A stretch of DNA of 64,000 bases from Planctomycetota bacterium (GTDB lineage Bacteria; Planctomycetota; UBA8108; SXIK01), in assembly GCA_965223845.1 (NCBI GenBank), contig CBDCXR010000004.1, positions 2,880,001-2,944,000 of the forward strand. The letters are read 5' to 3'. Positions 2,734-44,325 of this stretch are shown here, one piece after another. The position numbers were made by a program, and so were the translations under genes. A model generated the notes under the pieces. It did not search any database, was not told the DNA's origin, and worked only from the letters and a program-made list of their open reading frames with translations. The stretch's first letter is position 1, and the number at the start of each line of letters is the position of its first letter.

Positions 2734-4461
2734 TCACGGAGAATGCGCGACGAGCGAATGATATCGCCCGATGGCGAGTCGCGGGTGCGCTCGCCAGTCG
2801 CGCGTCCCGGGCCAGCGCACACGGACGTCGACCGTCTGGGTCCCCGCCGGAACTCCGTAGCGGACGCGCGGATCGTTTGACGCGAAGTAACTGCCGTCTC
2901 GCTGGACTTCGTGAATCCGCCGCCAATCCTCCGCGCGGAGCTCGACCAACGCGCCGTGCACGAGGCGTCCGCGAAGCGACAAGCCGATCCACGCGCGGCC
3001 ATCGCCGGCTCGGTTCTCGAGGAGCACGGCCGCCCCGCCGGCATGTGTGACGACGAGATCGCCGTCGCCGTCGTTGTCGTAGTCCGCCTCGGCGACGCAT
3101 CTCCCGGCGAGCGCGCGCCGAAACCAAGCACCGGACGTACTCGACACGTCGCGAAACCTACCGCGGCCGTCGTTCTCGAAGAGCAGATCGGGCTGCCGAT
3201 ACGTCACTCGCTCGCCGGGGTGGAACGCCTCGGCGTTGTCGAGGACGTGACCGTTCGCGACGTAGAGGTCGGGATCGCCATCGAGATCGTAGTCGAAGAA
3301 GCGCGCGCCGAACCCGAGCGGAAGGTAGCTGGCACGCGCGAGACCCGACTGCGCGGTGCCGTCGATGAAGAAATCACCCTGATTGAGGTAGAGCGTGTTC
3401 GTCTCTCGGCTGAAGTGCGTGAGGAAGTAGTCGAGTCGACCGTCGCTGTCGACGTCGGCGCGCGTGATTCCCATGCCCGCTTCCACTTCCCCGCCTTCGT
3501 TGAACGCGAAGCCGGTTTCGAGTGCGATGTCTTCGAAGCGAGCCGCGCCGAGGTTGCGCCAGAGCGTGTTTGCGACGGAATCGTTCGCGACGAGGATGTC
3601 CGGATCGCCGTCGCCGTCGAAGTCCGACGCGACGACACCGAGACCCTTCGCGGCAACTCGTCCCGAGACCGCACCGATCCCGCTCGCGCCGCTGACATCC
3701 CGGAAGCGGCCGCCGCCGAGATTGAGGTAGAGCCGATCGGCGACCCCGTCGAAACGCCGCGGATTGCAGTAGCTCGGAACCGCGCGCGTCGAACCGGGCG
3801 GCTTGGCCGGGCAGCCCGCGTGCTTCCGCGTGTCGTACGCGAGATAGCGCACGACATAAAGATCGAGATCGCCGTCCGCGTCGACATCGGTCCAGGTCGC
3901 GCTCGCAGACCACGACGGCGCCTCGTCGCGATCCGCGCTCAAGATCCCCGACTCCCGCGAAACGTCCACGAACCGGCCGCCATCGTTTCGGTAGAGTACG
4001 TCGGGGCCGTAGTTGGCGACAAAGAGATCCGGGGCGCCATCACCATCGAAGTCACCGACCGCGACGCCCATGCCGTATCCGCGGTCTCCGGCTCCGGCCG
4101 CGTCCGGTACGCGCTCGAAGCGACGGCCGCCGTCGTTTCGGTAGAGTACGTTCGGCGGATCTTCCTCCTGCGCGCGCTGCGTTCCGATGGCGTCGGGGTG
4201 GCCGTGCCCTTGGACGAGATAGAGATCGAGATCCCCGTCCCCGTCGTAGTCGATCCACGCGGCACCCGAGAGCATCGTCTCCGGGAGATATCGCTTCCCG
4301 GTCGCGCCGGTCATCGTGACGAACTCGATTCCAAGCTTCTTCGTCACGTCGACGAAAGCATCGTCTGCGTCCGCGCTCGTCGGTGCGGCGGAGATGAGCC
4401 CCGCGAAGACTACGGCGCGCGCGACCGCGGCGCAGCTCCGGACGGCGCCGGTCGCGCTCAC
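2734..4461 (-). CDS. CRTAC1-family FG-GAP/VCBS repeat protein with ASPIC-UnbV C-terminal domain
   Basis: Signal peptide, repeated D(Y/F)DxDGDxDL motifs, C-terminal GSYFASNDPRVRYG...VRWP. The GTG start overlaps the upstream stop (GTGA) and has a GAGGAGG RBS. Confidence 0.88.
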   Translation of the reverse strand: MSATGAVRSCAAVARAVVFAGLISAAPTSADADDAFVDVTKKLGIEFVTMTGATGKRYLPETMLSGAAWIDYDGDGDLDLYLVQGHGHPDAIGTQRAQEEDPPNVLYRNDGGRRFERVPDAAGAGDRGYGMGVAVGDFDGDGAPDLFVANYGPDVLYRNDGGRFVDVSRESGILSADRDEAPSWSASATWTDVDADGDLDLYVVRYLAYDTRKHAGCPAKPPGSTRAVPSYCNPRRFDGVADRLYLNLGGGRFRDVSGASGIGAVSGRVAAKGLGVVASDFDGDGDPDILVANDSVANTLWRNLGAARFEDIALETGFAFNEGGEVEAGMGITRADVDSDGRLDYFLTHFSRETNTLYLNQGDFFIDGTAQSGLARASYLPLGFGARFFDYDLDGDPDLYVANGHVLDNAEAFHPGERVTYRQPDLLFENDGRGRFRDVSSTSGAWFRRALAGRCVAEADYDNDGDGDLVVTHAGGAAVLLENRAGDGRAWIGLSLRGRLVHGALVELRAEDWRRIHEVQRDGSYFASNDPRVRYGVPAGTQTVDVRVRWPGTRDWRAHPRLAIGRYHSLVAHSP

Positions 4462-5168
4462 GCGTCCTCCTCGACTCGCTGCCACTCCCCGGCCAAAAGG
4501 AGCTCATGCGGACGGTACGCGGCTTTGTACGCCATCGACGAGCACTCGGCGACCCAGTAGCCGAGGTAGAAGTAGCGCATGCCACGCTCCTCGGCGACGC
4601 GAATCTCCGAGAGGATGTCGAACGTTCCGAGCGAGCGCGACGACAGCTCGGGATCGTGGAAGCCGTAAACCGAGCTCAACGACTCGCACCCTTCGTCCAC
4701 GTACGCGACCGCGACGAGTCGATCGGCAATCGAGTAGCGGAACTCGAGCGTCGGAACCGCATTCGCGAGGAACTGCCCGATGTACTCGAACGGGTCGCGC
4801 CGCGGCGCGGGCCAGTCGCGGCGCTCGTGGCGCGCGCGATGGAAGCGGTAGTAGAGGTCGAGTCGCTCCTCGTCGAGATCCGGCTCACCGATTTCGATCG
4901 ATACGTCCAGATTCCTCCGCAGAACGCGGCGCTGCGACTTCGACGGCCGAAACTCCGCGACGGGGACGCGGAGCGGGACACATTCGCGGCAGGCGGCGCA
5001 AACCGGTCGGAAATAGGAGTTCGCGAATCGCCGCACGCCGGCGGCGAGTTCGCGCTCGTGATCGGTGCTCGAAACTTCTGCGACCGAACGCACTTCGAGC
5101 TGCCAGGTGCGCCCGTCCAGATACGGACACGGCTCGGGGTCGGTGATGATTCGCGCTTCTTCCAGCAT
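4458..5168 (-). CDS. Arginyl-tRNA-protein transferase / Bpt-like aminoacyl transferase (ATE family)
   Basis: PCPYL, G(V)RR..YFRPVCAACRECVPLR, SKSQRRV, SLGTF, YLGYWV..C..MAYKA motifs. Confidence 0.9.
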   Translation of the reverse strand: MLEEARIITDPEPCPYLDGRTWQLEVRSVAEVSSTDHERELAAGVRRFANSYFRPVCAACRECVPLRVPVAEFRPSKSQRRVLRRNLDVSIEIGEPDLDEERLDLYYRFHRARHERRDWPAPRRDPFEYIGQFLANAVPTLEFRYSIADRLVAVAYVDEGCESLSSVYGFHDPELSSRSLGTFDILSEIRVAEERGMRYFYLGYWVAECSSMAYKAAYRPHELLLAGEWQRVEEDA

Positions 5169-9037: not shown

Positions 9038-12034
9038 TTAGTTCCGCGTGATGGTCTCGTGGAGATTGAAGAGGACGCGCGCGACGGCCGTCCAGGCCGC
9101 GAGCTCGACCGATTCTTCGCCCTTGGCGCCGACGAGTCGCCCGGCCGCTTCGGCGTCCGCGGCGTATGCGCGCTGCTCACTCGCGTAAACGGTCTGGAGA
9201 ATCGCGAGCTCGTTCGCGTCCGGACGGCGTGATGTCGTCTCGACGAAGGCCCACTCGATACGCGCGTCGGTGGACGCTCCGCCTTCATCGAGAATGCGCC
9301 GAGCGAACGCGACCGCCGCTTCGACGTAGCTCGGGTCGTTGAGAAGGACGAGCGCCTGCTGCGGAATGTTCGAGCGCGGACGCTCGGCCGTGCACTCCTC
9401 ACGGTTCGGGGCGTCGAACGCCATGAGGCTCGGATGGAGAAACGAGCGCTGCCACCACGTGTAGAGCCCGCGGCGGTAGCGGCTCTCGCCGTCGTCGGCC
9501 TTCCACTGCCGCTTCGGGAAATTGAGGTGCGCCCAGTACCCGACGGGCTGGTGCGGCTTCACACTGCGTCCGCCGATTCGCCGCGCGAGGAGTCCGGAGT
9601 GTGCGAGCGCTGTGTCGCGCACGAACTCCGCGTCGATCCGCCAGCGCGACTGACGCGCGAGGAGCTGATTGTAGGGATCGCGCTCCGCCGCGGTCGCCGT
9701 CGCGATCGAACTCTGGCGGTACGTCGACGAAAGAAGCATGAGCCGGATCATGTGCTTCACGTTCCAGCCGCTCTCGACGAACTCGACCGCGAGCCAGTCG
9801 AGAAGCTCGGGATGTGTCGGCGGCAGTCCCATCGCGCCGAGATCGTCGAGGCGCGACGAAAGACCGGCGCCGAAGAAGAGCTTCCAGAGTCGATTGACGA
9901 AGACGCGCGCGGTGAGCGGATGGTCGCTCGCGACGAGCCAGCGCGCGAGATCGAGGCGTGTCGCGCGCCGATCTCCCGTGTCCAGCTGGCCGAGAAAGGC
10001 AGGAATCGCGGGCGCGACGACGTCGCCGGTCGTGTCCATCCAGTCTCCGCGGAAGAGCACGCGAACGATGCGCGGTTCGGCCGGGGCCGAAACGACGCAC
10101 CGCGCCATCGAACCTTCGAGCTTCTTCTTCTCCGCCTCGACGCTCGTGCGCTCCTTGCGCGCGTCCTCGAGGTGTGGAGCGATCGAACGGTAGTGCTTCG
10201 CAATCACCGCACGTTGTGCGTCGTTCCGCTCGTCCACCGCAACTTCGAGCGCCGCACGGACGTCGTCCGGAACACTCCCCCCACCTTCGACGACCCGAAA
10301 GTAGAAACCGTGCCCGCCGGAGCCGTTGTTCACCTTGACGAGTAGATCGTTCACTCCCTCCTTGAGCGGCGCGGCGACCTTGTCTTGGTCGGGAGCGACA
10401 CCCCGGAGGATCTCCTTCGAGAGAATCTCCGAGCCGTTCAGCCAGACGCGGATTCCGTCGTCGCTGCCGAACGACAAATCGACGCTCCGCGGGGCGTCCG
10501 ATTCGATCGTGCGATAGAGGTACGTCGCGGAGTTTTGCCCGCTCAGCTCGTGAGCTTTTCCGTCGACCCACTCCTCTCGCTTTCGCCAGCGGCGTGCGTC
10601 TCCCTCGCCAAAGCTCGCCCCGAGATCGACTCGGGCGCCGGGGCCTCCGGCGGCGCCGCTCTCTTCCGGCGGAAACGCCGTTCGAAACGCCGCCGAGGCG
10701 TTCTCGGCAGCGAACGGTCCGACGGAATGCCACACGCCGAGGCGCGGGGGCGGCTGTTCGGCGAGTACCTGCGATTCCCAGGCGCGCTGATCGCGTTCGA
10801 TCTCACGGCGGAGATCGTCCGGCGGATCGTCGATGCGACTTCGAAGCTCGTCGAGCTTCGCCGTGAGCCGAGCGAGCTGCACCTCGTCGTCGGGCGATGG
10901 AACCGGAATCCCGGCGTCGCGATCCATGATCGGCGCCTCGCGGATGTCCGCGAAGAAGGCGCCGAGCGAGTAGAAATCGCGCGCGGTGTACGGATCGAAC
11001 TTGTGGTCGTGGCACTCGGCGCAGCCGACGGTCGCGCCCATCCAGACGGCGGAGATGTTGCGCACGCGATCCGATTGGTTCTTCGCCTCGTACTCCTTCG
11101 GCTGCGCGCCGCCTTCCTCGGTCGTCTGATTGAGCTTGTTGTAACAGGACGCCACGCGCTGCCATACGGTGGGTTCAGGGAGCAGATCCCCCGCGAGCTG
11201 CTCGATCGTGAACTCGTCGAACGGCTGGTTCTCGTTGAAAGATCGAATGACGTAGTCGCGATACGGGGTCACGTTTCGCGGGTTGTCGCTGTGGTAGCCG
11301 CGCGTATCGGCGAACCGAACGAGGTCGAGCCAAAAGACGGCCATACGCTCGCCGTAGTGCGGCGAGGCGAGAAGGCGTTCGACGGCTTTTTCGTACGCGT
11401 CGGCGGAGGCGTCGAGCAAAAACGCATCGAGCTCCTCGCGCGTAGGCGGAAGCCCAGTGAGGTCGAAACTCAGACGCCGAAGGAGCGTACGCCGATCGGC
11501 GGCGGGCGATGGCGCGAGCTTCTCGCGCTCGAGTCGCGCGAGGATAAACCGATCGATCGCGTTCCGCGTCCACTCGGCTCGTTCGGGATCCGGGACCTTC
11601 GGCTGATCGGGGACGACGTACGCCCAGTGCTTCGCCCACTCCGCGCCCTCTTCGATCCAAGCCCGAAGAGTCCGGATCTGCGCTTCGCTGAGCGCGGGTG
11701 CGATGTCCGCGGGCGGCATTCGCTCGGACGGATCCGTCGAGCTCACGCGCGAGATGAGCGCGCTCGAGTCCGGATCACCCGCGACGAGCGCGCGGTGTCC
11801 GCTCTTCAGTGCCGCAAACGCCGCGGTCCGGTCGTCGAGCCGCAGTCCGGCCTCCCGCTTCCCCGCATCGGGTCCGTGGCAGCGGTAACAGTTCTCGGCG
11901 AGGATCGGACGAACGTCTCGATTGTAGTCGACTTTCTTCGCCGACTCGTCGCCGCACACGCCCGCGAGCGGGGCGAGCGCAGCGAGAACGAGCGGGCCGA
12001 TGCCGCGGACGAAGGGGCGGGAGCAGAAAACCAT
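9038..12034 (-). CDS. PSD1/DUF1549-DUF1553 protein with planctomycete cytochrome c domain and PA14-like insert
   Basis: YNRDVRPILAENCYRCHGPD, CAECHDHKFDP, HPLTARVFVNRLW, PTHPELLDWLA. Internal GSDDGIRVWLNG insert. Confidence 0.92.
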   Translation of the reverse strand: MVFCSRPFVRGIGPLVLAALAPLAGVCGDESAKKVDYNRDVRPILAENCYRCHGPDAGKREAGLRLDDRTAAFAALKSGHRALVAGDPDSSALISRVSSTDPSERMPPADIAPALSEAQIRTLRAWIEEGAEWAKHWAYVVPDQPKVPDPERAEWTRNAIDRFILARLEREKLAPSPAADRRTLLRRLSFDLTGLPPTREELDAFLLDASADAYEKAVERLLASPHYGERMAVFWLDLVRFADTRGYHSDNPRNVTPYRDYVIRSFNENQPFDEFTIEQLAGDLLPEPTVWQRVASCYNKLNQTTEEGGAQPKEYEAKNQSDRVRNISAVWMGATVGCAECHDHKFDPYTARDFYSLGAFFADIREAPIMDRDAGIPVPSPDDEVQLARLTAKLDELRSRIDDPPDDLRREIERDQRAWESQVLAEQPPPRLGVWHSVGPFAAENASAAFRTAFPPEESGAAGGPGARVDLGASFGEGDARRWRKREEWVDGKAHELSGQNSATYLYRTIESDAPRSVDLSFGSDDGIRVWLNGSEILSKEILRGVAPDQDKVAAPLKEGVNDLLVKVNNGSGGHGFYFRVVEGGGSVPDDVRAALEVAVDERNDAQRAVIAKHYRSIAPHLEDARKERTSVEAEKKKLEGSMARCVVSAPAEPRIVRVLFRGDWMDTTGDVVAPAIPAFLGQLDTGDRRATRLDLARWLVASDHPLTARVFVNRLWKLFFGAGLSSRLDDLGAMGLPPTHPELLDWLAVEFVESGWNVKHMIRLMLLSSTYRQSSIATATAAERDPYNQLLARQSRWRIDAEFVRDTALAHSGLLARRIGGRSVKPHQPVGYWAHLNFPKRQWKADDGESRYRRGLYTWWQRSFLHPSLMAFDAPNREECTAERPRSNIPQQALVLLNDPSYVEAAVAFARRILDEGGASTDARIEWAFVETTSRRPDANELAILQTVYASEQRAYAADAEAAGRLVGAKGEESVELAAWTAVARVLFNLHETITRN

Positions 12035-12548
12035 CGTGTCTCGATCTCGGGTCTTCGGGCGATTGCCAACGCTCGTGCTCGACCTCGAGCGAAAACCCCG
12101 TGCCGAGCGAGACGGTGATACGCCCCCGCTCGGCGAGAGCGTTGGGGGAAAGTCAGCGGGTCCATAATAGGGCGAAGACCGCGCGAGACGTCGAGCGAAA
12201 ACCGTGCCGGGCGCGGTAGACGAGTCGCTCGAGCGCCGGATCACGGCACGGTATCCGGGCCCACGATAGATCAGTCCACTGGCCCGTCGAGATCGGTGGC
12301 GATCATCCCGGACGAGAAGAAGATCGTCTCTTGCAGCGACGGAGTCGCGATCTGGGACGTCGAGCCGACTCGAGATCGTCACCCTCGCCTCTCCAGACGA
12401 GGGCCGATTCCTCTCGGTCGACTGGTCGCCGGACCGCCGGCGCGTAGTCGCGGGGCAAGCCGACGGATCCGTGCACGTCTGGACAGTGCGTCCGTCGCTG
12501 TCCGCCGCCCGGTGATCGAGATCCGCTCAGCCGCGATCGATTCGGCCG

Positions 12549-14729: not shown

Positions 14730-17700
14730 ATGGGGACTTCAAAGAAAGAGGCCCGTTCCTCGCGCGGACTTACGGCGATTTTGCTAGTCGCGATCGCGGC
14801 CGGGAGCGCGGCGATTCTGTGGTGGAATCGCCCGCCGACGGATTCCGCTCGTGACGTCGCCGCCCCCGGCCCAGTCGGCGAATCCGCCGCCGGCCGGCCG
14901 ATCGAAGCGCCCGAGTTCGAGAAGCTCCGCCGGCGCACGATTCCCGGTGCCGATCGTTTCGAAGTGGAGACTCTCGCCGCCGAACTGGCTCCGAAGATCC
15001 GCGCACTAGAGGCCGAGTGGCGGGATCTTCCCCGTGATCGTTCCAGCGACGACGCGTCAGACCTAGTGGCGCCGACGTTCCGGTGGACGGCGCAGCACGC
15101 GGACGCTCGCCCGGCGGCCAGCATGGCGGACGGACTTCGCGCGCTGCTCGGTCGAGGCGTGGAGTCGCTCGACCACGTCGCGCTCAAGATCGTCCGGGTC
15201 GAGCCCGTCACGGAAGGGGAACTCGCGACGGAGCTGCGCTTCGAGCTCGTGGTCCGTCCGAGCTCGGGCGCGCACGTGAGCTGGACGGGGCGGGCACGCG
15301 TCCTCTGGACGTCCGAACGCAAGATCCGCGGGTGGAAGACGCTGTCCGTCGACTCGGTCGAGACGACCGGCCCTTTTCTTCGCGATGTTTCCGCGGCCGT
15401 GCTCCACGCGAACGCCGTCTACCACCAAGTCCTCGCGCACGGGATCGACCATTTCCGGGACCGACTCGACGCCGCCACGGGGATCGACGTCTACGGACAC
15501 TACGGAATCGCGGTCGGCGACGCGAACTCGGACGGCCTCGACGATCTCTATCTGCCGATGCCGCCGACCGTACCGAATGTCCTTCTCCTCGGCCAAACCG
15601 ACGGAACGTTTCGCGACGCCAGCACGGAGAGCGGCGCGAACCTCCTCGACGGCACGACGCAGGCGCTATTTCTCGATCTCGACAACGACGGGGACGACGA
15701 CATCGTGGCCCTCCTCGACGCGGGCGCGTGCGTGCTCCGCGGCGATGGCCGCGGGCGATTTGCCGTCGTTCCCGACGCGATCAGCGCGGGGTCCGCGCGC
15801 GGCTCACCGATCACCGTCGCTGCCGCCGACTACGACGCCGACGGCATCCTCGATCTCTATGTCGGTTCCTACGTCTTCTGGCGCGACCTATCGGGCGCGG
15901 TCGGCTCGCGTCTCCCGACGCCCTACCACGACGCGCAGAACGGTGCCCCGAATCGACTCCTCCGCGGGCGAGGAGACGGAACGTTTGAAGATGCGACCGC
16001 AGTCGCGGGGCTCGGAACGGTACACCGATTCACGTTCGCGGCGAGCTGGGCGGATTACGACTCGGACGGCGATGCCGACCTCTACGTTGCGAACGACTTC
16101 GGCAGCAACCAGCTCTTTCGCAATCGCGGTGACGGCACGTTCGAGGACGTCGCTCGAGTCGCGGGAGTCGTCGACATCGGACCGGGGATGAGCGTCGAGT
16201 GGTTCGACTACGATCGCGACGGCGATTTCGACCTCTACGTCGGAAACATGTTTTCCGCTGCCGGGCAGCGCGTCACGAACGAGCGCACTTACAAAGCGGG
16301 ATCTCCGGATCTTCAGCACGCGTACCGGAGACACGCCCGGGGGAATTCGCTCTACCGGAATCGCGGCGACGGCACGTTCGAAGACGCGAGTGAGTTTGCG
16401 CGAGCGACGTTCGGCCGCTGGGCCTGGGCGAGCGGGAACGTCGATTTCGATCTCGACGGTCACGACGATCTCTACGTTCAAAACGGCTTCGTGAGCAACG
16501 CTCGCGGACGCGAGCTCTGAAGCTTCTTCTGGCGACAGGTCGTGTCGCAGTCCCCCACGGCCGCGGTCAAGATCCAGCGGTACGAAGACGGCTGGAACGC
16601 GATCCAGCGCATGATCCGCGAAGACGAGTCGTGGAGCGGATGGGAACGGAACTGCGTCCACCTCGCTCGCGGCGACGGGAAGTTCACGGACGCGTCGGCG
16701 GTGAGTGGAGCCGACTACGCGACGGACGGACGCGCGTTCGCCGTCCTCGATGTCGATCGCGACGGACGTCCCGACCTCGCGCTACGGAATCGGAACGCGC
16801 CGACGCTGCGGATCGTGCAGAACGTGTGGCCCAATCCCGGGAGGTGCGTGTGGCTCCACCTCGAAGGGAGCACCGGCAACCGGGGCGCGATCGGGGCAGT
16901 CGTCGAAGTTCGTGCGGGGAAGGACCGCAGAGTGATTCCCATGACCGCCGGCTCCCGATTTCTCTCGCAGTCGAGCCGATGGCTCCCGATCGGTCTCGGC
17001 GACGCGCCCGGAGAAGTCGCGATCGCCGTTCGTTGGCCGGGCGGACGAACGCAAGAGCTCGGCGAACTCCAGCCGGGACACCGGTACTGGATTCGTGAGG
17101 GGGAGAGGCCCCGCGGAGAAGAATTGTCCGCGCGGCGAGAGTACGCCTCGATCGAGCCGAGCGACGCGCCAAGGAAGACCGGAGTCGGCACGTGGCTCAT
17201 CGAGCGCATTCCCGCTCCCGACTTCGAGCTGAAGAGAGTCGGCAAGAGCGAAATGCTGAATCTTCGCGGTCTGCGCGGCGCTCCCGTGCTTCTTCATATC
17301 CTCTCGCCGACGTGTGCCGTGTGCGTCGCGGCAGCACCCGAGCACCGACGGATCGAGAAGATCGCGACGGACGCGGGAGCACAACTCGTCCACGCGATCG
17401 TCGCGCGCAACGATCAAGACGCCGAGGCAGAGCGAATCCGCTTCGTCGAAGGGGCAGGCTACGAGGCGCCGGCGGTCGCGGCGGACGACGCGTTCGTCGC
17501 GGCGTACAACGTGCTTCACCGCGAGATCTGGAATCGCCGTCACGACCTCGCCGTGCCGACGACGATTTGGATCGACCCGGGCGGCTACGTCGTCCGCGTC
17601 GATCGCGGTGCGCTCGATCCGGATGCCGCTCGAGCGATCCTCGCGCAGTTTCCGCGATCGCCGAAGGAGCTGAGGACGCTCGCGATCGGTGATGCGTCCG

Positions 17701-18584
17701 GACCACTCGTCTACCCGGAAGCGTTCAGACGAAATTTCGCGGCTCTGGGAAACGCTTACCGCGAGGCCGGCTTCCCCGAGCTCGCGCGGTCCGCGTTCGC
17801 AGAGGACGCCGCAAGATCACCGAAGAGTTCGAACGCCCGCTTCAACCTCGCGGTCGTCGCGGCCGAGAGGGGTGACACCGCCGCCGCGGAGCGCATCTAC
17901 CGGGAAGTGATCGAGTCCGGTGAGTACTCGGGCGATGCGAGGAACAATCTCGCCGTCCTCCTCGCACAGCGGGGAGAGACCGATGCCGCGCTCCGTCTAC
18001 TCGTCGATCTCGTTGCGGGGAATCCCGCGCACGGCGAGGCGCCGCTCAACCTGGCCGGCATCCATCTTCGTTCGGGACGCGCCGAAGAAGCAGTGAAGGT
18101 GCTCGAGTCTGCCGTCCGAACGGACCCCGAGTCGGCTCGCTTTCGTCGCCAGCTCGCCTACGCACGGTACTCGTTAGGCGATGTCCACGGCGCCGAACAG
18201 GATTACCGACGTGCGATCGAGCTCGATCCGCTCGCATCCGAGTCCTACCGCGATCTCACCGCGCTCATCTTCGCCCAGGGACGCGAGCGCGAAGCCGCGG
18301 AGCTCGCCCGTCGCGGGATCGCGGTCGCGGGCGAAACCGCAGCGCTCCGGAATGCACTCGCGCTCGCGGAGATCGCGATCGGCCGGACGGAGGACGGACT
18401 CAACGGACTCCGGCGCGCGATCGAGCTCGACCCAAAACTCGTCCCGGCCTACGTGAACCTGATCGCGCACCTCGACGACCTGGGTCGCGAGAGTGAAGCG
18501 ACGGAGAATCTCGAACGGCTGCGGACGATCTCGCCGGAGGCGGCGGCGAGGGTGAGGCGGCGGCTGCGTGAGAGTGGGAAGTGA
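14730..18584 (+). CDS. Putative selenoprotein: N-terminal TM anchor + FG-GAP repeats + ASPIC-UnbV + redoxin (CxxC) + TPR, with Sec at UGA 16518-16520
   Basis: ORFs 14223..16520 and 16542..18584 are in the same frame, separated by a single TGA (GREL-U-SFFWRQVVSQSP). FG-GAP repeats continue across the junction and a SECIS-like hairpin follows. Confidence 0.8.
16518..16550 (+). promoter_or_regulatory. Putative bacterial SECIS element
   Basis: TGA + 11 nt + GCGACA-GGTCG-TGTCGC, a 6-bp perfect stem extendable by CT/AG with a bulged G. The loop starts with G at +18. Confidence 0.72.
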
Positions 18585-25595: not shown

Positions 25596-27512
25596 CTATA
25601 AATCCACCCCGACCGCGGAAAAATCCGTCGCCGTACCTTTGACGTAAATCCCGTAGTACCGGACTTCCTTCAGACCCGCGGGCAGCCGGACGTCGAAACT
25701 CTCGCCGCCGACAGTCGCCCGGCACTGGCGCTTCTCGAGGTCGAGCTCCACCGTGAGGTCGAATACCGGCGTCGGCTTCGCTCCTCTCCGTCCGCTCCGG
25801 CCGACGTTTCCCCAACCGCCCTCGAAGGCGACGTGCTCGCCCATTCCGATCGCCGTTCCGATTTTCAGCAAGTGCCGATTGGACGGCTCCGCACCGATCA
25901 CCAGTGCGGCGTTTCGCGTGCCGCTTGCGCGGGTCGAGCGGTAGCGCAGCTTGAACTTCGCCTTCCCTCTGATCGGCGAGTCGAGTTTCTCGAGGGCGAA
26001 CCCTTCGCCTTCCGCATCGAGACGGACGCCGAGCTCGCTCTGCGTAGCTCGAGCACCTTTGACGACGTCGAACTGCTTCGTCTGATCATCCCCATCCGGC
26101 AAAGGACCCGCGCTCTGTGTCCCGCGCCGCTGACGCCTCTGTCGCGGCGGCTCGTTCTTCCACCAGTCGGGACCCTCCGCCTTGACCGCCGCGTCGTGCG
26201 CGATCAGCCTCTTCTTCAGCTCTTCAAGCTTCTCCGGATACTTCTGGCTGAGATCCGTCGTCTCCTTCCAGTCGTCCTTCATGTTGAAGAGCTGGCAGCG
26301 GCTGATGTCCTCGTTGGCGACGATCTTCCAGTCGTCGATGCGGAGGGCAACTCGGCTGTCCGCCGAAGCGATGTGCGTCCTCCAGTAGAGAGGCTGTTCG
26401 CGACGGACGGGCTTTCCCTCGAGCGCGGGGAGCATGCTCGCTCCGTCGATCGTCCGATCTTTCGGAAGCGGAATCTCCGCGAGATGGCAGATCGTCGTGA
26501 AGATGTCGTGTCCGATGATCGGGACGTCACTCACCGAGCCGGGCTCGATTCCTCGCTTCTTGAAGTACGCGGGGAAGCGCACGATGCCGGGCACTCGAAT
26601 GCCGCCTTCATAGTCGTCGCGCTTCCGGCCGCGGAGCCCGCCGGTGGATCCTCTCGTCCGGCCCTTCGTCCCGCGACCCTCCGGCCCGTTGTCCGAAGTG
26701 TAGAAGACGCACGTATTCTCGGTGTGACCTAGCCTCTCGAGGGCGGCCATCAGCACACCGAAGGCGTGGTCGAGCTGCGTGATGTTGCCGTGATGCTGGC
26801 GCAGGCCCTCGTCCTCGAGGTGCGCGTACGGCTCCATGAAGCGCGGAGCGGACTCGATCGGCAGGTGCGGCTCGTGAGTCCACACGGTGATGAAGAACGG
26901 CTTCGCCGAGTCGCCGGCGGACTCGCGCTCGAGCCAACGGACCGCTTCGCTCACGGCGATGAGCGAAGACGGTCCCTCCATCCGCCCCACCGCCTTGCCG
27001 TTCCGGACGTAGTTGGTCGGGTTCAAGTGATGGGGCGCCGCGTTGTTCTGCGTCGCCAGCCAATGGTCGTATCCGTGATCACTCGGCTGCGGCTGCTCGG
27101 GGCTGTTGAAGTGGCCGTTCAGATGCCACTTGCCCGCGTGACAGGTGACGTAGCCCTTCTCCTTGAGCAACTCCGCGACGGTGATCTCGCTCGTTCGCAA
27201 ATGAACCTGATGTCCGGCGGGAATCCAGCGCCAGACACCGTTTCGGTACGGCGTGCGTCCGGTCAAGATCGCCGAGCGCGACGGAGAGCACACGCCGCAA
27301 GCCGAATAGCTCTGGGTGAATCGCACGCCCTGGGTGGCGAACTTGTCGATCGATGGAGACTTGATCTCCGGATGGCCGTAACAACCGAGGTCTCCCCAAC
27401 CTTGATCGTCCGTCAGAAAGACGACGAAATTGGGAAGCTCGGCGGAACGCGACTCGACGACGGTTGTCAGCAAGCCGATCGAGGCGAGGAACCACAGTGG
27501 AAGGTGCCGCAT
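25596..27512 (-). CDS. Secreted sulfatase (Cys-type, formylglycine-dependent) with C-terminal extension
   Basis: PNFVVFLTDDQGWGD, CSPSRSAILTGR, GKWHL, SDNG, EGGIRVP. Confidence 0.93.
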   Translation of the reverse strand: MRHLPLWFLASIGLLTTVVESRSAELPNFVVFLTDDQGWGDLGCYGHPEIKSPSIDKFATQGVRFTQSYSACGVCSPSRSAILTGRTPYRNGVWRWIPAGHQVHLRTSEITVAELLKEKGYVTCHAGKWHLNGHFNSPEQPQPSDHGYDHWLATQNNAAPHHLNPTNYVRNGKAVGRMEGPSSLIAVSEAVRWLERESAGDSAKPFFITVWTHEPHLPIESAPRFMEPYAHLEDEGLRQHHGNITQLDHAFGVLMAALERLGHTENTCVFYTSDNGPEGRGTKGRTRGSTGGLRGRKRDDYEGGIRVPGIVRFPAYFKKRGIEPGSVSDVPIIGHDIFTTICHLAEIPLPKDRTIDGASMLPALEGKPVRREQPLYWRTHIASADSRVALRIDDWKIVANEDISRCQLFNMKDDWKETTDLSQKYPEKLEELKKRLIAHDAAVKAEGPDWWKNEPPRQRRQRRGTQSAGPLPDGDDQTKQFDVVKGARATQSELGVRLDAEGEGFALEKLDSPIRGKAKFKLRYRSTRASGTRNAALVIGAEPSNRHLLKIGTAIGMGEHVAFEGGWGNVGRSGRRGAKPTPVFDLTVELDLEKRQCRATVGGESFDVRLPAGLKEVRYYGIYVKGTATDFSAVGVDL

Positions 27513-40509: not shown

Positions 40510-43500
40510 CTACTCGACCGGCCCGTCCGAGGCAGATCGCACTTCCAGCCCCGACACGATCGCGACGTCGCGATCGGGTACGAAGCGGATATCGAGCGAA
40601 CCGTCCTCCACTTGAACCAGAAACTCGCGCTGCCTCGGCACGCCGAAGCCGGCACTCTCCAGCTCGTAGTCGTCGATCGATCGCGCCCCCTCGATGAAAA
40701 CGTCGAATCGCCTCGGCTCCCGAGTTCCGAGCACGATCTCCGCGAAGTGAAGGGTCACTCGATAACGTCCTCCTTTCACCGGAATGCGGTAGCCGGAGAA
40801 ATGCGCGCCGCCCGCGAACTGTCGCACCGATCGATGGAGCGCGATTCGATCCGAATCGTCGCCGGCGAGTTGCGGGCGCGCATACGTCTTGCCGCCGTGA
40901 AAGAACTGGTCCGCGGCCCATTTCGTGCCGCTCGACTCCTCGAAAGCCGCACCACCCGAGTTCAGGCGGAATGGCACATCGACGTGCCTGCCGGACGAGG
41001 ATTCACCGTGACTCCGATCGGGAGCACGATCCCGTTCGAGTCCGAGACGTTCGACGAGGTAGGCCGGAGCGTCGGGAAGACGGAGCGCCTCGCGAAGGAC
41101 GTCCGACGCCTCGGCCTCGCGCCCCGACACGCGGAGCGCCTCGCCCAGGACGGAGAGAACACTCGGATCGGACCGCGCCGTGGCGTCGACCGCCGCCGCA
41201 GCACTCGCGAGCGCGCCGGAGACGTCGTTCGGGCTTCGTCCGAAGAGCCGGGACGCCGCGAGCATGGCGAGAGCCGCCGGCTCCGTCGAGCGTGGCGCGG
41301 CGCCGTCACCGCGGTGAGATCGCAAGCCCGCGCCCAGTCGGTCCCACTCCGCCTCGAATCGGCCGTCTCTGCCGAGACGATGCTGGAGCGAGGCGAGTCG
41401 CGGCAGCAGCCAGCCGCGCGCGCGATTCTCAAGGACCGCGTCGACCCCGGTGGAAAACGCCTCGGCATAGCGACCCAGTCGCTCGAGCGCCCAGACCAAG
41501 TCGGCGACGGCTCGGTCGTAACTCGGATCGAGCTCCACCGCGCGGCGAAGGGATCGCAGGCCGGCATCGCTCTCGCCGAGGCGAAGTTGAAGAAGGCCGA
41601 GCTCGCGATGGGCTCCGGCGTCCGTCGCATCGAGCTCGACCGCGGCGAGCAGCGAATTAGCTGCTTCGGCCGGGCTGCCGTTCGCCGCCAGCGCCTGAGC
41701 CAATACCCGGTACGTCGACGTCCGGGGATCCGATGCGACGGACTCGCGAGCAACCTCGATCGCTTGATCGAACTGCCCTCGAGCGAGAAGGAGCCGACTC
41801 AGCTCGTAGCGCAGACGAAGGGATCGATGACGAGGATTTCCGCCCGCGATCTTCGCCGCAGCGCGGTACGTGTCCACCGCTTCGCGGAATCTCCCCCGGC
41901 GCTTGAAATGCCGAGCCAGGTGGAAGATCCACCGCGGTTCTTCGGGGCTCACCGCGATCGCGCGCTCAAAGTAATCCTCCGCGCGCGTCCAATCACCCTC
42001 CATCTCGTAGGCTGCCCCTAAGAGGCAGAGGGTCGCATCTCGACCCGGATTGAGCTCGTCTGCACGGTGAATGATCGTGAGGGCGTCTCGAATGCCCCCC
42101 CCCGACTTCGCGACCTTGAGCAGCGCCGCGCCCAGAGAATGGTGCAGTCGCGCATTGTCGGGAAATCGTGCGATTCCTTCGCGCCCGACGCGCACGGCCT
42201 CGTCGTAACGTCCGAGGAGATAGTTAAAGCTGGTCCGCAGCGCGAAGCTGAGTGACGCGTCGGTGCTCTTTCCGATCCATCGGAGTCCCTCTTCGTACTC
42301 GCGGTGAAACTTGTAGAACCCCGTCACCCAAGTGACGATCTCGTTCCGGAACTTCGGTTGGTGCTCGAACGCCTCTCCGAAGGTCCGGGCCGTTTCTTTC
42401 GGCTCCCCCTTCTCGAAGTAAGCCATCCCGAGGAGCAGCCTCGGTTCGACCGCGTCGGGCCAAATCGTAGTCGCCGCGATGAGCATCTCGACGGCTTCGG
42501 AAAGGCGGTCCGATTTCAGCAGTGCCGAGGCACCGCCGAGATAAAACTCGATGTCCGCCCCGAGGAACGGCTCCCCTTCGCTCTTCGAAACGTCGATGAG
42601 GCGCTTGTACGCGCTCGCGGCAACCGGCCAGTCCGACGCGCGGCTCGCTTGATAGGCCTCGAGCCAGAGCTCGCCCCATGCCGAGGCAGTTTTGGCCAAA
42701 GACGCCCGGGAGCGACCGAGCTCGACGTCGCGCAGAATTCGTGCGGGGACGAGACCGGAATCGAGCCGGAGTGCCTCGTCGAGGTCCTCGAGGGCCGCAT
42801 CTCCCCGACCTAAAAGACGAAGCCCGCGCGCCCGATGGAGGAACGCCTCCGCCCGTCGCGGATCGACGGCGATCGCATCACCGAGGCGCTTCAGCGCATC
42901 TTCGAGGGGAAGCAATCCCTCGCTCGGGAGAAGCGCGCTGCGCCAAACCCGTTCGGCGGACTGCCGCGGCGACGAGTTCGTTTCACTGTGGGCTCGCACC
43001 GTCTCGCCCGTCCACGCGTCGAGCGCCATCGCTCCGAGATGGAGCTGCATGACGGCTTCCTCGACTTCACTTCGGTACCTCCGTGCGGTTTCGAGCTCGC
43101 GCGAACTGCGATAGTTCCAGACCAGCAGACTCGAAGTGACGGCCAAGAGGACGATCGATGCCGAAAGCACGAGCTGCCGCCGGTTCTGCCAGGCACGACG
43201 TAGAATCGACTCCCACGCCGGGGGCACTCTCGCCTCGATGGGGTCTCCTCGAGAGAACCGTCTCAAGTCTTGGCCTAGCGCCTCCGCCGTTCGGTAGCGG
43301 TCGCTCGCGCTCTTCGCCATGCACCGCAGGACGATGGTCTCGAGGTCTTTGGGGACTCGAGGACTGATCGAGCGAATTCGCCGCGCGTCACGAGTGATCA
43401 CTTGGCTGAGAGTGTCCGCGTGGTCCTTCCCGCGAAACGGTGGCTCGCCCGTGAACGTTTCGTACATGGTCGCGCCGAGAGAATAGATATCGGTGCGGTG

Positions 43501-44325
43501 GTCGATCGGAATCCTTCGGCGCCGCGCCTGCTCCGGGCTCATGTACTGGGGAGTCCCGACGAAGTCGCCCGACTGCGTGAGCGACTCTTGGCCTTCGAGC
43601 CGTGCGAGTCCGAAGTCGAGGATTCGCAAGCGTTGCTGCGCGTCGAGAATCAGGTTCGACGGCTTGATATCGCGGTGGATAACACCCTTTCCGTGCGCGT
43701 GCTGCAGGCCGTCGGCAACCTCCGCGAAGATTCGAGCCAGACTGCCGAAATAAGAGACGTCGTCCTTTCTCCCAAAGGTCGTGACGCTCTCCGGATCTGC
43801 CTCCCTCAATCGCTCGAGGACGCGCGCCAAGGTCTCGCCCTCGACGTATTCCATCGCGAAGTAGGGAGTGTGTTCCTTGAGACCGACGCCGTACACGGGG
43901 ACGACGTTCGGGTGACTCAGCTTTCCCGCAGTCCGCGCCTCGCGCATGAATCGGCTGAACGCTTTGTCGTCCGCGGCTACGCCGGCAGGGAGGACCTTGA
44001 GGGCGACGGCGCGATCCATCGAGTTTTCCCATGCCTCGTACACGACTCCCATACCGCCGCGACCGAGTGGGCGCTGAAGGACGTAGTCTCCGAGAGTGCC
44101 CAGCGAGCGATGCGGCGTACCGCCTCCCAGCGCGCCATCGAAAACTCGGAGTTGGTCGACGAGGTCATCGGCAAGATGCGGATAGTCGCGCCGTACGTCC
44201 TCCACGCGGATCGCTTCGCCTGCGGTGAGCCTCTCGACGTACTCGGCGAAAACCATCTCGAGCTCGGAAAGTCCGTCGCTCGATCCTCCCGAGATGCCGT
44301 CGAACGGATCGGAATCATCGAACAT
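40510..44325 (-). CDS. Hanks-type Ser/Thr kinase with TM, TPR repeats and C-terminal malectin domain
   Basis: LGRGGMGVVY, HRDIKPSN, DFGLAR, GTPQYMSPEQ, then TPRs, then YRVTLHFAEI...RRFDVFIEG...AIVSGLEV. Confidence 0.93.
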   Translation of the reverse strand: MFDDSDPFDGISGGSSDGLSELEMVFAEYVERLTAGEAIRVEDVRRDYPHLADDLVDQLRVFDGALGGGTPHRSLGTLGDYVLQRPLGRGGMGVVYEAWENSMDRAVALKVLPAGVAADDKAFSRFMREARTAGKLSHPNVVPVYGVGLKEHTPYFAMEYVEGETLARVLERLREADPESVTTFGRKDDVSYFGSLARIFAEVADGLQHAHGKGVIHRDIKPSNLILDAQQRLRILDFGLARLEGQESLTQSGDFVGTPQYMSPEQARRRRIPIDHRTDIYSLGATMYETFTGEPPFRGKDHADTLSQVITRDARRIRSISPRVPKDLETIVLRCMAKSASDRYRTAEALGQDLRRFSRGDPIEARVPPAWESILRRAWQNRRQLVLSASIVLLAVTSSLLVWNYRSSRELETARRYRSEVEEAVMQLHLGAMALDAWTGETVRAHSETNSSPRQSAERVWRSALLPSEGLLPLEDALKRLGDAIAVDPRRAEAFLHRARGLRLLGRGDAALEDLDEALRLDSGLVPARILRDVELGRSRASLAKTASAWGELWLEAYQASRASDWPVAASAYKRLIDVSKSEGEPFLGADIEFYLGGASALLKSDRLSEAVEMLIAATTIWPDAVEPRLLLGMAYFEKGEPKETARTFGEAFEHQPKFRNEIVTWVTGFYKFHREYEEGLRWIGKSTDASLSFALRTSFNYLLGRYDEAVRVGREGIARFPDNARLHHSLGAALLKVAKSGGGIRDALTIIHRADELNPGRDATLCLLGAAYEMEGDWTRAEDYFERAIAVSPEEPRWIFHLARHFKRRGRFREAVDTYRAAAKIAGGNPRHRSLRLRYELSRLLLARGQFDQAIEVARESVASDPRTSTYRVLAQALAANGSPAEAANSLLAAVELDATDAGAHRELGLLQLRLGESDAGLRSLRRAVELDPSYDRAVADLVWALERLGRYAEAFSTGVDAVLENRARGWLLPRLASLQHRLGRDGRFEAEWDRLGAGLRSHRGDGAAPRSTEPAALAMLAASRLFGRSPNDVSGALASAAAAVDATARSDPSVLSVLGEALRVSGREAEASDVLREALRLPDAPAYLVERLGLERDRAPDRSHGESSSGRHVDVPFRLNSGGAAFEESSGTKWAADQFFHGGKTYARPQLAGDDSDRIALHRSVRQFAGGAHFSGYRIPVKGGRYRVTLHFAEIVLGTREPRRFDVFIEGARSIDDYELESAGFGVPRQREFLVQVEDGSLDIRFVPDRDVAIVSGLEVRSASDGPVE

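Follow-up and report, generated by a model that had tools for sequence, protein, structure and literature searches.

A candidate selenoprotein family with an in-frame UGA inside a CRTAC1-like beta-propeller and a redoxin domain on the same chain

INTRODUCTION

Bacterial selenocysteine (Sec) insertion takes place at a UGA codon that is followed shortly 3′ by a stem-loop whose apical loop keeps a G (and U), which is the criterion of bSECISearch and of the E. coli fdhF literature. Most bacteria have only few selenoproteins, and Cys is the usual counterpart of Sec in homologs. Here we describe a gene on a 64,000-nt stretch of DNA from Planctomycetota bacterium (GenBank assembly GCA_965223845.1, contig CBDCXR010000004.1, positions 2,880,001 to 2,944,000 of the forward strand), which is called the window below. 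Two consecutive open reading frames (ORFs) of the window, separated by one UGA, are annotated as two genes; judged from their sequence, they most likely encode one large exported protein with Sec at this conserved UGA. An initial annotation of the window had proposed such a selenoprotein, and its claims were followed up in the present study.

The locus resembles the known bacterial selenoprotein genes with a Sec insertion sequence (SECIS), for example that of the formate dehydrogenase (FDH) alpha subunit, in its in-frame UGA, 11-nt spacer and GGUC-type loop and in the presence of selA, selB, selD and tRNA-Sec. Unlike FDH, the protein belongs to an unrelated family, the Sec is not located beside a metal cofactor motif, the homologs carry Asn, Ser, Ala, Glu or Asp and not Cys, and the stem is 6 bp. 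Like the CRTAC1/ASPIC-UnbV proteins (9etn_A), which give the best fold match, it has an FG-GAP propeller followed by UnbV_ASPIC, whereas the membrane anchor, the Sec at a helix start, the CxxC domain and the tetratricopeptide repeats (TPRs) are additions of the window protein, and the identity is 18%. We know of no selenocysteine, redoxin domain or TPR in CRTAC1. NF041054, a model of ResA-like WAxxUGC selenoproteins, likewise joins an extracytoplasmic-type redoxin to TPR-like helices; its Sec, however, lies inside the UGC redox motif, whereas the motif of the window protein is CAVC and its Sec is found ~265 residues upstream in another domain. Membership of NF041054 was rejected on the score (30.7 bits, where the cut-off is 300) and on the motif, and this was the only selenoprotein model touched, with no NCBIfam model over the propeller part. 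Finally, TlpA/ResA/Etrx-type extracytoplasmic thioredoxins recycle partner enzymes, and fusions such as thioredoxin-MsrA-MsrB occur. The fused domain is like these thioredoxins in its CxxC and presumed cis-Pro, its matches to 4evm_A and 4hqs_A and the DsbD-type carrier in the genome; it is unlike them in that the presumed client is a propeller selenol and not a methionine sulfoxide reductase or cytochrome maturation factor. In our reading the decoding would be canonical, and the novelty would lie in the protein family, in a Sec site with a non-Cys history and in a recycling domain fused to the same chain.

RESULTS

One UGA within a single reading frame

The TGA at 16518-16520 parts two ORFs of the same frame, one ending at 16520 and the other extending over 16542-18584. 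The initial annotation had reported two consecutive in-frame ORFs split at this codon, and both the arrangement and the flanking peptides agree with the sequence. Translation from the ATG at 14730 with TGA read as U gives the junction peptide ..NARGREL-U-SFFWRQVVSQSP... A public gene caller uses the same start and predicts an N-terminal piece of 596 aa (P0122); in relatives, the N-terminal pieces are 571-630 aa long.

Pfam analysis of the 1284-aa product identified six FG-GAP_3 stretches, an FG-GAP repeat at residues 667-689 (i.e. beyond the TGA), UnbV_ASPIC at residues 720-786 and TPRs from residue ~1004. Propeller and ASPIC scores were above the cut-offs (PF13517, 139.2 bits; PF01839, 57.6; PF07593, 41.2), and the AhpC and Redoxin matches at residues 828-964, with 24.0 and 23.6 bits, were slightly below theirs (26 and 26.6). 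These domains on the TGA=U translation bear out the FG-GAP/ASPIC-UnbV/redoxin/TPR layout of ~1284 aa described in the initial annotation, including its statement that the propeller goes on past the UGA. Its description of the protein as membrane-anchored is also consistent with the sequence, in which a basic N-terminus is followed by LTAILLVAIAAGSAAILWW; the N-termini of the paralogs described below are signal-like or lipobox-like when read by eye.

The UGA is conserved in paralogs and in two phyla

A six-frame search with a 400-aa junction piece was carried out in the source genome of the window and 40 relatives. Each of the 79 best matches, from these 41 genomes, contained exactly one in-frame TGA, and the first match without TGA was ranked 80th. 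The source genome has eight paralogs with TGA in the same column, D-[LT]-U-S-x-x-W. We also searched a 97-aa junction piece in two 301-genome samples without any genome in common, one of the source phylum and one centred on an Acidobacteriota genome. In the phylum sample 43 of the 301 genomes were matched, with TGA in 65 of the 73 matches; in the Acidobacteriota sample 62 of 301 were matched, with TGA in 54 of 75 matches, or 53 of 73 when genomes G379 and G482, which are flagged as unpublished, are left out. The expectation of the initial annotation that the TGA would recur at this column thus held for paralogs and orthologs and for both samples. Moreover, among 55 loci examined over ~560 aa around the site, all 51 with the TGA form had one TGA and no other stop, and 71 distinct TGA junctions could be aligned free of gaps.

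Because seven of the eight paralogs terminate on TGA, this codon remains a stop and is not generally reassigned. A contig assembled from public short reads (four DNA runs of one study, probably of the source sample) covered 16300-16544 with 0 differences; since the same codon is also present in the 79 best-scoring matches of the relatives, a sequencing slip does not account for the TGA. In these reads the depth increased ~40-fold exactly over 16508-16555, where many contigs break, and therefore the TGA-plus-hairpin word is common to many genes of that sample. A word that is repeat-like in this way, across many genes or organisms, may fragment assemblies.

A covarying hairpin follows the UGA

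Downstream of the UGA, an 11-nt spacer (16521-16531) is followed by GCGACA (16532-16537), the loop GGTCG (16538-16542) and TGTCGC (16543-16548), which is the sequence of the hairpin GCGACA-GGUCG-UGUCGC that the initial annotation had placed 11 nt past the UGA. The 71 distinct TGA junctions were aligned without gaps over 48 nt from the TGA, the helix being formed by columns 15-20 with columns 26-31. Standard pairs were present in 96.4% of the 420 cells, whereas shuffling gave 86.0% on average and did not reach the observed value in any of 500 trials; sliding the 3′ partner by 1-3 columns gave a pairing of only 17-70%. Double-sided changes were found in four of the six stem pairs. Pair 18-28, for example, was AU in 26 sequences, GU in 17, CG in 16, GC in 3, UA in 2 and UG in 2, pair 20-26 was AU in 59 and GC in 9, and pair 16-30 was CG in 62, UA in 3 and AU in 1. 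RNAalifold, unprompted, gave the same helix. The initial annotation had suggested covariation as a check, and the hairpin is indeed conserved with compensatory changes. Column 18, where an Arg codon has its synonymous third base, tracks the first base of codon 9, which is Ser TCG, Pro CCG, Ala GCG or Thr ACG; such covariation between the two codons appears hard to attribute to protein-level selection. In the loop, G22 is invariant and U23 is conserved in at least 90% of sequences, so that the apical loop contains the G and U of known bacterial elements. The four TGA sequences that are off-register have equivalent hairpins, as judged by eye, shifted by one or a few bases.

The pairing is specific to the TGA forms: all six pairs are formed in 67 of 71 TGA forms versus one of 88 non-TGA homologs that encode SFFWRQVV. 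Codon usage in the stem follows the same division, as the Val codon 8 is GTG in 55/58 TGA forms versus 39/76 non-TGA forms, and the Gln codon 6 is CAG in 47/47 versus 66/78. Hence the synonymous sites at codons 6 and 8 are freer in non-TGA forms. The single exception among the 88 is an Asp form without TGA (L058:1579-1626, G133), which keeps all six pairs as GCGCGA-GGTGA-TCGCGC and may be a recent conversion from a TGA form.

An FDH-like gene of the source genome provided an internal positive control. It contains one TGA in the context ..NCSRA-U-HAPTV.., which we take to resemble the usual Sec context of formate dehydrogenases, and then an 11-nt spacer and the hairpin GGTCGCC-GGTCT-GGCGGCC. 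Both the spacing and the GGUC-type loop of the propeller gene match those of this FDH Sec site. The gene encodes a molybdopterin enzyme (L106; G000:C4:4982714-4986463 (-)), with the TGA near 4,984,549 and a GGUCU loop. When the whole genome was scanned for TGA followed by 9-13 nt, a stem of at least 6 bp and a GGTC loop, in a frame open for 50 codons on each side, 13 hits were obtained, among them the FDH-like gene and six of the eight paralogs. A broader scan for an open-frame TGA with any hairpin gave 85 candidates, mostly in antisense frames, and was dropped as too noisy. At G000:C4 ~4,736,323 (-), an in-frame TGA (..AAVSR-U-TVIVSVVVGV..) in a region with high GC content at third codon positions is followed 9 nt on by an 8-bp hairpin with a GGTC loop; this could be due to chance or could be another recoded gene.

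Genomes with the UGA form contain the Sec machinery

The source genome contains selB (320 bits), selA (536), selD (308) and tRNA-Sec (68), all above the cut-offs, and so the Sec genes that the initial annotation had proposed to look for are all present. In the phylum sample selA was found in 221 of 301 genomes and in 39/39 genomes with the TGA form, and in the Acidobacteriota sample in 236 of 301 and in 43/45. The two TGA-form genomes without selA (G411 and G560) have selB and tRNA-Sec above the cut-offs. Sec machinery was thus detected in all 84 TGA-form genomes (selA in 82/84), against a background of 73-78%; the genomes of the samples are related and not independent, and this co-occurrence is given without a p-value.

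Two observations concern the machinery genes themselves. The selD match of the source genome (L010, G000:C4:5317241-5318161) lies in an open frame of 809 aa, compared with 311 positions of the model, which suggests a fusion protein. In the Acidobacteriota genome G411, a selB-model match of 193.7 bits (cut-off 242.25) at C6:15269-16447 contains one in-frame TGA.

Homologs without the UGA form nested clades

Homologs that read through the site without TGA carry a range of residues. Among the 120 best full-length database homologs (~50% identity), 110 sequences covered the site and had Asn (94), Ala (8), Ser (6), Cys (1) or Leu (1). The eight non-TGA junctions of the phylum sample had Glu (4), Asp (2), Arg (1) or Cys (1), and 80 loci of named Acidobacteriota genomes, mostly Terriglobia, had Asn (41), Ser (16), Ala (11), Gly (4), Glu (4), Gln (3) or Asp (1). 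Trp was never present at the Sec column in the non-TGA homologs examined. The flanking peptide SFFWRQVV is as conserved without Sec as with Sec.

To place these forms, a quick maximum-likelihood tree of 84 sequences was built with the site masked (short search, with support from the Shimodaira–Hasegawa-like approximate likelihood ratio test only). It was rooted on eight more distant FG-GAP/ASPIC proteins, which have Asp at the aligned position, where the outgroup alignment is uncertain. The three most basal branches were Sec forms, and the non-Sec forms made up two nested clades. One of these, with Glu or Asp, is sister to two Sec forms (support 99); in the other, large clade (support 99) the first branch has Cys, the following ones Ala or Ser, and the crown Asn. 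The simplest reading of these sequences would be that Sec was gained once, at the base of the subfamily, and later lost at least twice. A Sec/Cys pair thus seems to exist in the family and to be rare, the Cys homolog P0020 apparently being the earliest branch of the non-Sec clade. The initial annotation had regarded variable residues and a missing hairpin in homologs as evidence against Sec. Variable, non-Cys residues are indeed found, but they do not refute Sec, because the clades that carry them are derived and nested among Sec forms, and their hairpin is gone.

A further difference between the two groups lies elsewhere in the propeller. At A2 model columns 208-209 (window residues 437-438, FAASW), Cys is present in 35/47 and 43/47 non-Sec forms versus 0/37 and 2/37 Sec forms; most non-Sec relatives therefore have two adjacent Cys there, and extra Cys are found at columns 47, 82 and 150 too. 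These might be a redox or disulfide feature that takes the place of the lost one.

The proposed Sec is located at a helix start in the propeller

An AlphaFold2 model of residues 230-800, based on an 84-row alignment, had a mean predicted local distance difference test score (pLDDT) of 93.4 and a predicted template modelling score (pTM) of 0.94, with no dip at the junction. The model folds across the junction, and no start codon is found at a constant place past the TGA, which suggests that the two ORFs form one protein. The best solved fold was murine CRTAC1 (9etn_A; E 6.3e-26, template modelling score 0.67-0.69), with fungal lectins, integrin alpha chains and the rhamnogalacturonan lyase YesW far behind. 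Residue U597 corresponds to model residue 368, the first residue of helix 368-378, after strand 363-366. The initial annotation had assigned Sec to residue ~597 in a propeller loop; the residue number and the Sec reading stand, but in the model the position is a helix start directly after a strand and not a loop. In thioredoxin-fold and peroxidase families, redox-active Cys or Sec is often located at the N-terminus of a helix after a strand. Residues favoured as helix caps include Asn, Asp, Ser and Gly, and this may explain what replaces Sec in the derived clades.

Cys is present at the column of Cys642 in 24 of 37 Sec forms versus 0 of 47 non-Sec forms and is missing from the basal Sec clades. 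Hence Cys642 was rejected as a universal resolving partner of Sec.

A fused redoxin motif is retained and lost with the proposed Sec

All eight paralogs have a CxxC motif past the ASPIC domain (CAVC, CAAC, CAHC, CSPC, CAPC, CPPC, CASC and CAAC), and it is retained even in the two paralogs that have no TPRs. In an alignment of 38 Sec forms, only C62, C65, P143 and G160 are invariant, and we take P143 to be the cis-Pro of the thioredoxin fold. The redoxin Pfam score exceeds the cut-off in the paralogs L101, L103 and L104, and a PDB sequence search gave two entries titled 'Thioredoxin family protein', 4evm_A and 4hqs_A, as the nearest solved sequences. The source genome has a single DsbD_TM gene.

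We then counted CxxC in 128 of the 159 junction-bearing sequences, namely those reaching at least 330 residues beyond the site. The motif occurs in 44 of 45 Sec forms versus 0 of 83 non-Sec forms and has disappeared from both non-Sec clades. This provides independent support for the suggestion in the initial annotation that the same-chain CAVC redoxin could recycle Sec. Of the two Cys, 45 of the 83 non-Sec forms keep the second only, five the first only and 33 neither. The first Cys of a thioredoxin-fold CxxC is the attacking one, and its selective loss therefore suggests that redox function in particular was lost. One gene in genome G194 (L053:1579-1626 and L053:2182-2703) has kept the TGA, has a hairpin register off by one base and has lost the redoxin CxxC; it may be an intermediate toward Sec loss.

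Current annotation of the family

When the N-terminal piece was searched in the database, 111 of the 120 best matches stopped right at ..D-L before the site and nine continued past it, having Asn, Asp, Met, Ser or Gln there, in line with the remark in the initial annotation that pipelines split this gene in two. Where a name is given, it is 'VCBS repeat-containing protein', 'FG-GAP repeat domain-containing protein' or 'hypothetical protein', and the nearest named database relatives come from metagenome-assembled genomes labelled Planctomycetota. No annotated read-through form is apparent, because none of the best 120 database matches to the junction region exceeds 52% identity, compared with 59-64% for the TGA-form orthologs.

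Full-text literature searches gave no mention of the family as a selenoprotein, nor is it named as one in the main texts of selenoproteome papers, including PMC4807772 and PMC12013277, whose supplementary lists could still name it. Supplements aside, this agrees with the view of the initial annotation that CRTAC1/ASPIC-UnbV proteins are not a classical selenoprotein family, and the present family is apparently undescribed. According to the main text of the deep-Sep paper (PMC12013277), current selenoprotein search methods lean on Sec/Cys pairs. Since the homologs here carry Asn, Ser or Ala and not Cys, the family would tend to escape such searches.

DISCUSSION

Taken together, the conserved UGA, the covarying hairpin and the co-occurrence with the machinery make it very probable that UGA 597 is decoded as Sec. 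That Sec597 and the CxxC form an electron relay, as their joint retention and loss suggest, is a step further, which we favour by a small measure. The combined proposal of Sec decoding and a redox centre served by the fused redoxin appears to us reasonably probable. In this proposal the SelA/SelB/SelD/tRNA-Sec system would decode UGA 16518-16520, with SelB reading the hairpin and bringing Sec-tRNA, because this is the standard bacterial mechanism applied to the UGA, hairpin and machinery that are observed. The ~140-kDa product would be exported, and its N-terminal anchor would keep it outside the cytoplasm; Sec597 would begin a helix that is inserted in a beta-propeller of the CRTAC1-like, calcium type. 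The protein may then be a redox enzyme or redox switch that acts outside the cytoplasm, with the selenol of Sec597 as its reactive centre; the TlpA/ResA-like CxxC domain would re-reduce this selenol after each turnover, with electrons that would come from a membrane carrier of the DsbD/CcdA type, and the propeller and TPRs may bind a substrate or partner with which the selenol reacts. In lineages that abandoned this chemistry, a capping residue would have taken the place of Sec, the hairpin would have decayed and the redoxin would have been left without its attacking Cys. Because such non-Sec lineages retain the propeller, it must also have a redox-independent role.

Several observations weigh against this proposal. 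Taken as a single sequence, the 71-nt stretch 16510-16580 folds with z = +1.24, and shuffled versions did as well or better in 180 of 200 cases; since the lone fold is no better than chance, the hairpin gains significance only via comparison. Its stem is short (6 bp), and a permissive Rfam search of 16300-16800 gave zero matches. No RNA run was found among the public runs containing the stretch. Cys, expected at a Sec column, is nearly absent (1/110, namely P0020; 1/8, the distant match L098; 0/80), and because non-Sec forms tolerate Asn, Ser, Ala, Gly, Glu, Gln and Asp there, the site is dispensable for the fold and for the core function of the family. In genomes that hold only non-Sec forms, selA is still present in 3/5 and 13/17 cases; loss of the machinery was therefore rejected as the cause of Sec loss. 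The association of Sec with CxxC amounts to only two independent losses on the tree, and one Sec form, L053, is without CxxC. Also, the DsbD_TM gene is ~64 kb away from the selenoprotein gene, and no shared gene neighbourhood or partner gene was found around the eight paralogs, where sulfatases, kinases and lectin-like proteins vary.

Some of these points bear on a different view, in which Sec is inserted but has no link to the CxxC and acts as a soft-metal ligand, a structural cap or a translational gate that senses selenium supply. Joint loss of Sec and CxxC would then reflect a shared need for a reducing extracytoplasmic pathway, or ancestry. The small number of independent losses and the L053 form suit this view, and so does the equal conservation of the SFFWRQVV flank in non-Sec forms; moreover, Asn, Asp, Glu, Ser, Ala, Gly and Gln at the site are residues of helix-capping types, and Asp, Glu and Asn are also metal ligands. 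However, the association is sharp, only the first Cys has been lost in 45 of 83 non-Sec forms, and up to eight Sec paralogs per genome would be costly for a mere cap, and hence we consider this explanation unlikely, if still deserving attention. In principle, a suppressor or Sec-like tRNA could also recode the UGA as Trp, Cys, Gly or some further residue in place of Sec, the hairpin merely stimulating read-through. Incorporation of selenium is inferred here from sequence comparison, homologs hardly ever have Cys at the column, and in size the hairpin falls well short of the full E. coli fdhF SECIS. Against this stand the machinery in every one of the TGA-form genomes, the spacing and GGUC loop shared with the FDH site of the same genome, and the absence of Trp, the near-cognate read-through product, from the column in the non-TGA homologs examined, which together render non-Sec recoding improbable. 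Least probable of all, and only barely to be considered, is that the TGA is a true stop of a naturally split gene or a pseudogene with two polypeptides. Public gene callers do stop here, as do most of the N-terminal database pieces, and the window gene has a GTG seven codons past the TGA. This GTG is not kept in divergent paralogs, the seven codons before it vary synonymously (AGC/AGT, TTC/TTT) while the peptide they encode is conserved, and the downstream part would complete an exported propeller without having an export signal of its own; a pseudogene would not be expected to keep a single TGA in the same column, free of other stops, in members of two phyla.

If Sec decoding with same-chain recycling is correct, the genes described here would constitute a large, overlooked family of exported propeller-enzyme selenoproteins, with up to eight copies per genome and members in at least two phyla. 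Its Sec would have arisen at a helix-start position that was not previously a catalytic Cys and would form a novel type of active site, a generalization for and against which we see the case as evenly balanced. Up to eight selenoprotein genes would, if confirmed, be added to the source genome alone, and the selenoproteomes of soil and water bacterial lineages would have been undercounted. Selenium chemistry would also operate outside the cytoplasm on a CRTAC1-like scaffold. The redox-dead relatives, with Asn and SxxC, offer natural controls for tracing the function of bacterial CRTAC1-like proteins, and the short hairpin, embedded in coding sequence and rich in covariation, is a compact model of SelB requirements in these phyla.

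Features of the locus and neighbouring genes

The coordinates of the features are collected in Table 1.

Table 1. Features of the candidate selenoprotein gene, in window coordinates
Feature	Position (strand)	Details	Basis
Whole read-through gene	14730..18584 (+)	1284 codons plus stop TGA 18582-18584; proposed Sec is codon 597	TGA=U translation
Putative N-terminal hydrophobic signal anchor	14769..14825 (+)	LTAILLVAIAAGSAAILWW behind a basic N-terminus	Sequence reading
CRTAC1-like FG-GAP beta-propeller and UnbV/ASPIC	15417..17129 (+)	Residues 230-800; TGA inside	Pfam FG-GAP_3 6.6e-41, UnbV_ASPIC 1.5e-10; AlphaFold2
In-frame UGA, proposed Sec codon U597	16518..16520 (+)	Helix start in model	
SECIS-like hairpin	16532..16548 (+)	Stem GCGACA/UGUCGC, 6 bp; loop GGUCG	Sequence and covariation
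Cys642	16653..16655 (+)	Motif ERNC	Cys confined to Sec forms, not in all of them
TlpA/ResA-like thioredoxin-fold redoxin domain	17211..17621 (+)	CAVC at 17313-17324	Pfam AhpC-TSA, Redoxin, E 4e-5
C-terminal TPR repeats	17739..18539 (+)	Optional in family	Missing from paralogs L104 and L105

A second FG-GAP/UnbV_ASPIC protein of 583 aa is encoded at window positions 2737-4485 (-), ~10 kb upstream of the selenoprotein gene; it is a plain CRTAC1-like relative without in-frame TGA, redoxin or TPR. Other genes of the window encode a PSCyt1/PSCyt2/PSD1 (DUF1549/DUF1553) protein at 9041-12382 (-), a sulfatase at 25599-27512 (-) and a Ser/Thr kinase-TPR-malectin protein at 40513-44325 (-), and a second kinase-TPR-malectin gene adjoins the paralog L195.

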